From Escherichia coli O127:H6 str. E2348/69 (GTDB lineage: Bacteria; Pseudomonadota; Gammaproteobacteria; Enterobacterales; Enterobacteriaceae): 64,000 bases of DNA. Shown one piece after another: positions 9,801 to 12,800 of this stretch; position 1 is the first letter of the stretch, and every line of letters begins with the position of its first letter. Position numbers: made by a program. The stretch lies in the NCBI RefSeq assembly GCF_000026545.1, contig NC_011601.1, one strand, 5' to 3'.

Positions 9801-12800
9801 ATCAGTGAAGAAACACAAAATGACAGCTGTGAGAAAATACTGACGCCGACAGAGTGGAAACTGCTGTGGGTTAAGCTGGAAGGAAAACCGCTTCCGTCAC
9901 AGATGCCGACACTGAAATGGGCCTGTCTGAAACTGGCGAAACTGGGGCGATGGCATGACAGCAAACGCACCGGTCGCCCCGGTTGGGTAGTCATGTGGGA
10001 TGGCTGGTTCAGACTTCAGGATATGGTTGAGGGTTACCTGGTGATGAAGTCTCTTGATCAGGAGATCTGATCAAGAGACAGCCCGGGCGAAGAGGGCTGC
10101 TTTGGTCCACGTCGATCCAATATCGACAGAGACGATTTGCATCAGATTGCCTCTTCAAGAATACGAGTATCAACGTCATGACGTTGGTTGATATCGTGGG
10201 CCATCAGCTGACAAACATCTTCTAAGTCATGACTTGGGGCAAAGACGCGATCAAATCCCATCTCTTTGAATTTGGTTTCCACGTCAGCGAAGTCATGTTT
10301 TCCGACCACCAGGTTACCGCCCACATAGAGCAGGATGTCCCCCAGTCCACGCTCGATGCAGCGTTCGCGCATGCCCAGACAGTCGATATCGCCATGCCCA
10401 TAGATAGAGGAGACGACAATCGCGTCAGCGCCAGTTTCAATGGCCGCATCAATATATTCGTCCTGGCTGACCATTACGCCCAGATTAATGACTCTGAAGC
10501 CATGGTTGCTAAAAACGCGGTCCAGAACTTTATTGCCTACTGCATGGCAGTCCGCGCCAATAACGCCAATCACAAGTGTTGCTTTCTTCATGGGTAATCC
10601 TTTGTAAGACAGAGAGTAAAATAAGTTACACACGTCGTATTTATGGCCGTTCATAACGGCACAGGTTTAATATCACAGGAGTGTCTTTATCTGACCGTAA
10701 TGTTGCAATTGATCTATTTTCAAAATGTCTTTCGGGAAATGATTGTTTAAAGTATGTTGTTAAATTCTCATGTTAATTCAGTGTGTTATGTCAACTAATG
10801 TCATGAATGTTAAATTTTTAAAATTAACTTGATTTGGTGTATTGAGGTATTTGTGATCTACTTCTAATTTGCATTTTAGTGATATGGGTTTAGCCATGAG
10901 TAAATGCATTTCATAAAATTTAAGTCGAATTTCACTGCAATTCATCTCTGCTTAATGTAAAAATAATGTTGAAAATAACAAATGGTTAATGATTCATGCG
11001 AATTATGACCTTAGTTAGCTCTTTTGATTTTTCGTAAAAAAGAGAGGTACATGAAGGTGCTACCAGTATGAGTAACGTTAATCAAAGGTTTTATTACCTC
11101 TGGCAATAACGCAGGCCATTTTCGCGACTGGGTGGATTTAATCAGTATAATCCTCATACAATAGTTCACGATTAACTGAACCGTTAACGGGGATTTGGTG
11201 TTGAAATTTAGAAATGGCGGAGTCAATTAATGAAGACAATATCGAAAAAATGACAGTGTCAGAATTAATTTCAATTAATCCTTCTCGTTGTTGACCAAAA
11301 AAGATATTTATCTTGATTTCATTTGTACTACGGCAATCAATATGTAGTAATTTTTGATCGCTGAGATTTTCTGTTTCATAAATGTTTTTGGCGATAGTCG
11401 GATGAATTGATGCCAGACATCTGCTCAGATAAGCCAGTTCCTTTAGGGAACACCCCGCTGAGTAGAGGATGTCAGAGAATTTTTGTGTGTCAACTGTTGT
11501 CTCTGAAGCGTATGTTGCATTGACAGGAAGGGTGTTGAAAGAGATTTGAGATGGGATCATTATTTAAATCTTTCCGTGAGTAATAAAAATTAATCCCCGG
11601 GCATTGTTTAGCAATATTTGCCACAGGGAATATATAAAAATTAAAGTATTTGATTGGCATCGGTTAACTGATCAATAACCAGTGCCAGATTGGTAAACAT
11701 TTTGAAAAAGCGATACTGGCTCGGAATATCTCTTTCAAAGACGAAACATTCAATGTCATTGTTTGAAAAATAAAGGACTAGTGTTGCTGATTCGTCAGGA
11801 AAAATATGGAAATATATCTGGTTACCAGAAGGAGGATAGTCCAGAAGAAGGGTATCTTTGCCCGTCACATACCTGTTGTGGTCGTGGATGCTGCGCTCAC
11901 ACTTCATCAGAGGTGTCATGATACTCATGTATTCATCTGATGTTAATATATTAAAATCACCATCCATTTTAAAGAAACGATAAAGTAACAGTACATCCTC
12001 TTGCGTAACCGGTTCGTTTGTTTTTAGAGGGAAATAAGTGGGAACCAGAAGATGAGGTTCTAATCTATTTTGTTGAGCGCTATAACTAAATTTGAACATA
12101 AATTCCGGATCGCTCATCAATTGAGCGACATAATTATGCCTGGCTTCAAAAATTTTAACTTTTATCAGGTTAAATAAGTCTGTTTCGTCATCCTGTATTA
12201 AAAGACATTGGCCATAGCAGTCAGGCTTTTTTTCATTATAAGCAGAAACGGTTATTCTGTCAGGAGTGTCAACGTTATATCCAAAAGCCAGATAGTGACC
12301 GTCCTCATCGAGATTTGTTTCCAGGTTATTTAAATTTATCACATGAAGTGTTTGCAATGCTGATTCAATGAGCTGTTGACTCTCTGAGGTAAATGTTTCG
12401 CGCTGCGTTGTATAAAGTGTATCGATTCCAACGACTATCCGATATGGGTCAAGGATGGCGGCAATCATCTTTATTACCTGCACAGTCACGGGTGATGTCA
12501 TTGATTCGTTATCTGTTTTTAGAGGATCATTAGATGGCCAACCTGAGAAGCGATTGACAGCCGAACCGATATTATCAGGACTCATAGCAGCAACCTCATT
12601 GTAATCAAGCGAGGCGCTGAGCGTACTCGGCTATAGAAAAACTAACTTGCAAAAATCGCTCATTTTTCATTTATCAGGCGAAAGTGGTCTCTGTTCACTC
12701 AGAAACAATCACTCCCGCTAAGTCATACCTGTTTCATCGATACATTTAAGTGATTATTACTAATGAAACAATAACATAACGGGCTTACGGCCGGTGCTCA

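Follow-up and report, generated by a model that had tools for sequence, protein, structure and literature searches.

Taxonomically restricted (ORFan) accessory genes of Escherichia coli are a class known from comparative genomics: short, AT-rich and fast-evolving genes without homologues. Here we analyse two adjacent genes, A and B, that lie next to the cydAB operon in a 64-kb stretch of DNA (the window) from the enteropathogenic E. coli (EPEC) strain E2348/69; the window is 100% identical to the E2348/69 genome. A and B are an uncharacterised orphan pair, a real feature of a familiar kind. Like ORFan genes they have a low GC content (36-38%, with a GC content at third codon positions, GC3, of 0.33-0.36), no homologue outside the genus and a ratio of non-synonymous to synonymous substitution rates (dN/dS) of about 0.4, and they are patchily present and frequently lost. 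Unlike ORFan genes, A is long with 314 amino acids (aa), and the pair is not tied to prophage or mobile DNA but keeps its position beside a core operon across two species. The second system for comparison is xenogeneic DNA silenced by H-NS. The cassette formed by A and B resembles such DNA in being AT-rich, near-silent in culture and contiguous with a documented H-NS target, the upstream region of cydAB (Govantes et al. 2000, via PMC3708157). It differs in its lack of integrase, tRNA or repeat hallmarks and in its apparently vertical inheritance within the genus.

The explanation that we consider best, with a probability of roughly 0.5, is an old, genus-restricted and position-fixed orphan pair whose genes are functional and conditionally expressed under silencing, with A being autonomous and B dispensable. 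The two co-directional genes are restricted to Escherichia and were present before E. coli and E. albertii split; they would be kept off by putative H-NS-type silencing that extends to the neighbouring cyd promoter DNA as well. Expression would occur only under some special condition, probably a host-associated one. In that case A would be the component that acts, and B a partner that can be dispensed with. The locus is composed of the following features:

11641-12585, minus strand: open reading frame (ORF) A, E2348C_0615, WP_001339355.1, 314 aa, 'hypothetical protein' in RefSeq
11138-11560, minus strand: ORF B, E2348C_0614, WP_000613121.1, 140 aa, 'hypothetical protein' in RefSeq
11561-11640, minus strand: spacer between A and B, 80 bp, no terminator-like site
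12586-12749, minus strand: cassette-specific DNA upstream of A, presumed promoter and 5' untranslated region (UTR) of A
12750-13387, plus strand: cydA control region, common with cassette-free E. coli, AT-rich and continuous with the cassette
10592-11137, strand unspecified: spacer between B and glmS, 546 bp, AT-rich (32% GC), presumably the promoter of the glmS operon

Judged by its coding constraint, A is a genuine gene. When 10655-13387 was shuffled 2000 times with its composition kept, the longest run without a stop had a mean length of 88 codons and never exceeded 184. A run of 140 codons or more appeared in 0.95% of the shuffles and one of 314 or more in none, so the lengths of both ORFs are beyond chance. 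After 217 substitutions relative to the E. albertii copy, A contains neither a stop codon nor an insertion or deletion (indel), whereas random placement of the same number of substitutions creates 8 stops on average and leaves the frame free of stops with P = 2.5e-4. Variable sites in A are distributed over codon positions 1, 2 and 3 as 85/59/117, a third-position excess with p = 6e-5. The dN/dS of A was 0.37-0.60 in all informative comparisons, compared to 0.00-0.01 for cydA, and by this measure A is under moderate purifying selection as a protein. The coding support for B points in the same direction and is weaker: dN/dS was 0.12-0.40 in informative pairs and all six alleles examined are intact. 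B alleles fall into two groups (96-100% and 84-86% identity), both of them intact and each found on hundreds of contigs. A GAGG ribosome-binding site precedes the ATG of A by 8 nt.

The base composition sets the pair apart from its surroundings. An initial annotation of this DNA had placed two same-strand ORFs of 314 and 140 aa, 80 bp apart, at exactly the positions listed above on the minus strand, and had described them as AT-rich compared to the flanking genes. Both statements are borne out, with a GC content of 38.4% for A and 36.4% for B versus 49.5% for the window, 52.8% for cydA and 48.3% for glmS. GC3 is 0.36 for A and 0.33 for B versus 0.62 for cydA. The flanks are even lower in GC (31.9% for 10655-11137 and 33.2% for 12586-13387), and values of 32-38% extend across 10592-13387. 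Binned at 1 kb, the 64-kb window drops below 42% GC at 11001-13000 and nowhere else; a GC content this far under the window value is what an H-NS-silenced islet would have. The two ORFs form a co-directional unit; the AT-rich tract around them is 2.8 kb long and passes directly into the control region of cydAB. The initial annotation had further bounded the pair by two AT-rich non-coding tracts. Their composition is as described, but the limits need adjustment. RefSeq starts glmS at an internal methionine (10142-10591), so the left tract covers 10592-11137, in which only short unconserved ORFs occur. The right tract (12586-13380) is not entirely specific to the cassette, since 12750-13387 also occurs in B2 strains that lack the cassette, LF82 among them.

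The pair is present in 1135 of 5426 complete E. coli genomes (about 21%) and is thus accessory rather than core; intact homologues exist, so neither of the two outcomes named in advance as speaking against a module, conserved core genes or a lack of intact homologues, was found. The sites comprise 1136 chromosomal ones and one on a record labelled as plasmid. Of 60 carriers sampled evenly, 59 had annotations of both genes and at least 57 had undisturbed spans. On the chromosome the pair always adjoins cydA and is divergent from it. A tblastn search of plasmids and phages returned no phage and only three E. coli 'plasmid' records, which are 0.73-4.9 Mb long and thus evidently chromosomal sequence. 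Judged from these genomes, the pair is shown to be carried by no plasmid, phage or insertion sequence (IS). Scanning one genome per prokaryotic species yielded four A/B loci, namely two contigs of metagenome-assembled genomes (MAGs), E. albertii and Escherichia sp. MOD1-EC7003. The A proteins encoded on the MAG contigs, labelled 'Citrobacter sp.' (L005, DXKH01000067.1) and 'Collinsella sp.' (L006, JAIJJM010000209.1), are 98-99% identical to that of E2348/69. Both contigs are plainly E. coli DNA and look like binning contamination rather than an occurrence in another genus. No remnants of A or B were found by tblastn in the cassette-free strains LF82 and REL606. Among the E. coli carrier loci, L001, L002, L005, L006 and L011-L015 show 90.7-100% identity over the tract 10655-11137, which is also matched in L004 (93%) and in the clade strain MOD1-EC7003 (L008, 92%), and has no match in E. 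albertii.

The age of the pair can be read from E. albertii. There, A is intact with 314 aa, 65% identity and zero indels and is divergent from the adjoining cydA, and the whole 802-bp spacer between A and cydA aligns at 85% identity. The presence of A and of this spacer at the same place indicates that the pair predates the split of E. coli and E. albertii. The DNA therefore appears to be old and vertically inherited within the genus. The horizontal acquisition suggested in the initial annotation is not supported, and there is no sign of a recent one: the E. albertii locus is orthologous and no copy was found on a plasmid, in a phage or in another genus. No integrase, tRNA or flanking-repeat signature was detected at the cassette, and neither a donor homologue nor mobility genes indicate a foreign origin. 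B of E. albertii is a pseudogene in which the start and ~58 codons are recognisable before the frame is broken by a frameshift and stops. The comparison shows that A can persist without B. In the type strain of E. albertii A itself is frameshifted, and in MOD1-EC7003 both genes are degraded. As far as these genomes show, the pair has been lost, replaced or pseudogenised repeatedly, lineage by lineage. The suggestion that the two genes constitute an undescribed module is unproven, as E. albertii has kept A but not an intact B and our analysis yielded no evidence of a function.

Two side observations concern these loci. The decayed A of MOD1-EC7003 contains an enterobacterial repetitive intergenic consensus (ERIC) repeat (L008 6387-6427) that matches the consensus core at 40 of 41 positions; a perfect copy of the core lies in the window at 44933-44973. 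Between sucD and the remnant of B, E. albertii carries a gene for a 258-aa protein with a signal peptide and a beta-barrel-like, outer-membrane-like character (L003 11786-12562), which is truncated in the type strain (L007 7862-8206).

In laboratory culture A and B are hardly expressed. In RNA sequencing (RNA-seq) of E2348/69 the DESeq baseMean values were 1.9 and 4.1 for B and 7.1 and 11.6 for A, compared to 1508 and 1062 for cydA (PMC8550237, supplement). In a second data set of the same strain, read counts of B fell from 21.6 to 2.3 in one growth comparison, while those of cydA ranged from 3020 to 16435 (PMC4464170, supplement). Transcripts of the pair are thus 100- to 1000-fold below that of cydA, and neither protein was detected in an O157 proteome of 2521 proteins. 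Very low expression is therefore evident in two published RNA-seq sets and one proteome. A scan for terminators found no terminator-like site between or after A and B, and because the 80-bp spacer lacks one, the two genes are probably co-transcribed. Promoter and terminator matches at the locus did not exceed the shuffled expectation, no Rfam family matched at E <= 1, and the locus DNA contains no meaningful repeats. Matches to the H-NS motif amount to 4.3 per kb in the cassette tract versus 1.4 per kb in the window, a 3-fold enrichment, and the cassette lengthens the AT-rich cyd-promoter tract by ~2 kb. For cydAB, repression by H-NS with ArcA as the antagonist has been reported (Govantes et al. 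2000, cited in PMC3708157). Given the near-zero RNA-seq counts and the adjoining H-NS-controlled cydAB region, H-NS-type silencing, which the initial annotation had considered possible, is a reasonable and plausible, if putative, cause of the silence of A and B.

Several points weigh against a functional, silenced pair. Upstream of A on the minus strand there is no strong sigma-70 consensus, so the low expression might simply reflect an absent promoter. For B, random substitutions leave the frame free of stops with P = 0.12, and the test by codon position is borderline (p = 0.052). Homologues of B were sought with a word index and profile libraries, the exhaustive search covering A only. Divergence of the coding parts is about equal to that of their intergenic neighbours, which is a sign of weak constraint; the spacer between A and B differs by 5-20% between E. 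coli alleles. Moreover, sporadic knock-outs of the genes by frameshift and IS exist, and whole lineages are without the genes through loss. Knock-outs and lineage losses leave room for genes with no current function. A and B could then be relics, once functional and now drifting under relaxed constraint, that are kept mainly by linkage of the silenced tract to the essential cydAB control region. This would agree with transcription near zero and the undetected proteins, with the independent decay of B in E. albertii, of A in the E. albertii type strain and of both in MOD1-EC7003 with its ERIC insertion, and with the divergence of the cassette and its own intergenic DNA, which between E. coli strains is 2-5 times that of the flanking glmS and cydA. 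However, drifting relics would hardly keep a 314-codon frame without an indel across a synonymous divergence (dS) of ~0.5, as A has done at the above P = 2.5e-4 under random placement. A dN/dS of about 0.4 and not 1, the clear third-position excess of A and the undisturbed spans in the sampled carriers likewise argue against it. We regard relics as a possible but clearly less probable explanation than a functional pair.

The proteins themselves offer few clues to a function. Both are predicted from sequence to be soluble, hydrophilic and acidic (pI 4.55 for A and 4.82 for B), without transmembrane segment or signal peptide. Their N-termini are rich in Ser, Thr, Asn and Pro, that of B especially in Ser, Thr and Asn. 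The initial annotation could not name a motif in either protein, and we can confirm this, as single-sequence and profile searches of Pfam, NCBIfam, PHROGs, PADLOC and PDB gave no significant match. A was searched exhaustively with phmmer against 1.84 billion representative proteins; the 14 hits were without exception fragments of the same family with 74-100% identity. In a word-indexed search of 5.8 billion clusters, matches to A and B came from Escherichia and Shigella only. AlphaFold2 (AF2) models built on shallow alignments reached a mean predicted local distance difference test score (pLDDT) of 42.5 for A and 41.9 for B and are unusable, so that no fold can be read from them. Foldseek searches with these models recovered only the proteins' own orthologues, with template modelling (TM) scores of 0.28-0.42, besides noise; such scores between orthologues mean that the predictions are not even self-consistent. 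Repeated beta-beta-beta-alpha units in the AF2 secondary structures had raised the idea that B is a paralogue of the C-terminal half of A or that A is an internal duplication. We rejected this idea on an hhalign probability of 0.5%, a BLASTP E value of 1.7 and shuffle tests with z between -1.0 and 1.3.

Pairs of a non-LEE type III effector and a class I chaperone, as found in EPEC and enterohaemorrhagic E. coli (EHEC) and named for their position outside the enterocyte effacement locus (LEE), are another described system with similar traits. A and/or B could be substrates of a type III secretion system (LEE or E. coli type III secretion system 2, ETT2), with A acting as the effector and the small, acidic B as its chaperone. 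The locus has traits that are generic for effector loci: its GC is low, its occurrence is restricted to certain lineages, it evolves fast and it is silent in rich medium. B, encoded downstream of A, has 140 aa and a pI of 4.8. A crude composition count of the N-termini assigns 11 of 25 residues for A, and 13 of 25 for B, to Ser, Thr, Asn, Gln and Pro; charged residues and Leu are few. The examined carriers include LEE-positive EPEC, O157, O145 and E. albertii. However, the cassette also occurs in sequence types ST69 and ST38 and in avian and canine isolates, lineages that are not known to be LEE-positive, and is present in many lineages outside the attaching and effacing (A/E) group. Profile searches revealed no similarity to any effector or chaperone family, the AF2 models do not allow a fold to be determined, and the locus tags of A and B are not mentioned in the literature searched. 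E. albertii moreover retains A while dispensing with B. We consider a role in type III secretion unlikely.

Two adjacent small genes on the same strand, patchily distributed and placed in a hypervariable chromosomal hotspot, are also reminiscent of type II toxin-antitoxin (TA) systems and two-gene defence systems. The pair could accordingly be a conflict module, be it toxin-antitoxin, toxin-immunity or anti-phage defence. Neither protein matches a family in PADLOC (0 families), Pfam or NCBIfam. Both are acidic and lack a DNA-binding motif, and sizes of 314 and 140 aa are atypical for such systems. The genes do not overlap but are separated by the 80-bp gap, their neighbours are metabolic (cyd, glm, hut, mng) rather than defensive, and the partners are not co-retained, as E. 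albertii keeps A with B pseudogenised. In addition, the pair shows next to no transcription and in this differs from constitutive TA or defence loci. A conflict module is therefore, in our view, very unlikely.

The neighbourhood of the pair gave rise to two further explanations. On the minus strand, A and B are followed by the 546-bp AT-rich spacer, by glmS (methylaspartate mutase subunit S) and then directly by ISEc13. This IS4-like element is present as a single copy at ~8533-10081 with a transposase ORF at 8697-10070. Its junctions lie at 8532/8533 and 10081/10082: homology to mngA stops at 8532 and homology to the O157 island starts at 10082. ISEc13 marks a deletion in which mngA was cut after ~111 codons and the 3' part of mngA and any mngB were removed. 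Of the methylaspartate island, E2348/69 has kept glmS and 60 nt of glmL. In O157:H7 EDL933, AST85, RMDEC465, 2018-05-2CC and IMT16316 the cassette is located between cydA and a complete methylaspartate/mesaconate cluster without any IS. A comparison with the O157:H7 locus had been proposed in the initial annotation, and EDL933 indeed carries the same cassette beside the complete cluster. Elsewhere, the interval between sucD and cydA holds mngR-mngAB (REL606) or a gene for a 371-aa tetratricopeptide repeat (TPR) protein (LF82). Judged from these arrangements, the sucD-cydA interval is a multi-state recombination and replacement hotspot. Its multiple states are seen when ~7300-13400 of the window is set against L002, L003, L009, L010 and L016; further states are the methylaspartate island with or without hut genes (EDL933, IMT16316) and the 258-aa outer-membrane-like gene of E. 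albertii.

The low GC content and the nearby IS4-family element in E2348/69 could suggest a recent import of the pair by or with ISEc13. The IS junction noted in the initial annotation does exist, though not beside the cassette; it is ~1 kb away at ~10081/10082, past glmS. No second copy of the IS and no flanking repeats were found, and with glmS between the single IS and the cassette, the pair does not qualify as cargo of an IS or composite transposon. More than 1100 carrier genomes have the same cassette and an intact methylaspartate island without ISEc13. Among them, IMT16316 carries a 99.4% identical cassette together with hut genes and the complete island. The link between IS and cassette thus has to be dropped. 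As the locus is also orthologous in E. albertii, import by ISEc13 is already contradicted and hardly credible.

Alternatively, A and B might be accessory or leader genes of the downstream methylaspartate operon, which converts glutamate to mesaconate. The order A, B, glmS-glmL-glmE-mal is co-directional and in E. coli the cassette is always accompanied by the island or an island remnant. However, the methylaspartate cluster is also found in other genera, among them Klebsiella, Citrobacter, Salmonella and Yersinia (PMC4682846). A lacks homologues beyond Escherichia and B had none in the word-indexed search, so the pair does not co-occur with glmS/glmE/mal across cluster-bearing taxa. E. albertii has A without the cluster. 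The wide occurrence of the cluster and the E. albertii locus together argue that the pair is not part of the methylaspartate cluster proper. A GC content of 37% compared to 48% for glmS and the AT-rich spacer of 546 bp between B and glmS point the same way. We find a role as accessory genes of this operon quite unlikely.

On its other side the cassette runs into the control region of cydA. Homology to LF82 starts at 12750 with ~91% identity (window 12750-13387), and 13015-13387 is common to REL606/K-12-type strains with ~80% identity. The segment 12586-12749 is present only in cassette-bearing genomes and in E. albertii. K-12/B-type strains are ~80% identical to E2348/69 over 370 bp upstream of cydA, and the CydA protein in the REL606 and LF82 records is identical to that of E2348/69. 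Regulatory DNA of ~80% identity in front of an identical CydA suggests deeply diverged cyd regulatory haplotypes that are linked to a variable neighbour. Additionally, the supplement of a study of EPEC by RNA interaction by ligation and sequencing (RIL-seq, PMC8550237) lists a chimera of the cydA 5' UTR (~13250-13390) and RyhB with 54 reads and p ~1e-34, which implies control of cydA by a small RNA in E2348/69.

A more far-reaching explanation is that A with an optional B represents a new Escherichia-specific family with a condition-specific role. This could be a secreted or host-interaction factor induced in the gut; alternatively, the DNA of the locus and its product could tune the control of cydAB by H-NS and ArcA. 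We consider such a role rather improbable.

At present, the locus mainly represents an ordinary phenomenon, a silent and weakly constrained orphan pair in the sucD-cydA hotspot, and the impression of IS-borne foreign DNA is corrected. If A and B are functional, they would be an unstudied genus-specific determinant in the major pathogenic lineages O157:H7, EPEC E2348/69, O145, ST69 and ST38, and the locus would also offer a clean test of the time for which silenced orphan genes persist. The neighbouring operon encodes an oxidase on which E. coli depends in the low-oxygen gut. Should the tuning of cydAB prove true, the lineages that carry the cassette (O157, EPEC1, ST69, ST38) would differ in their microaerobic respiration response.

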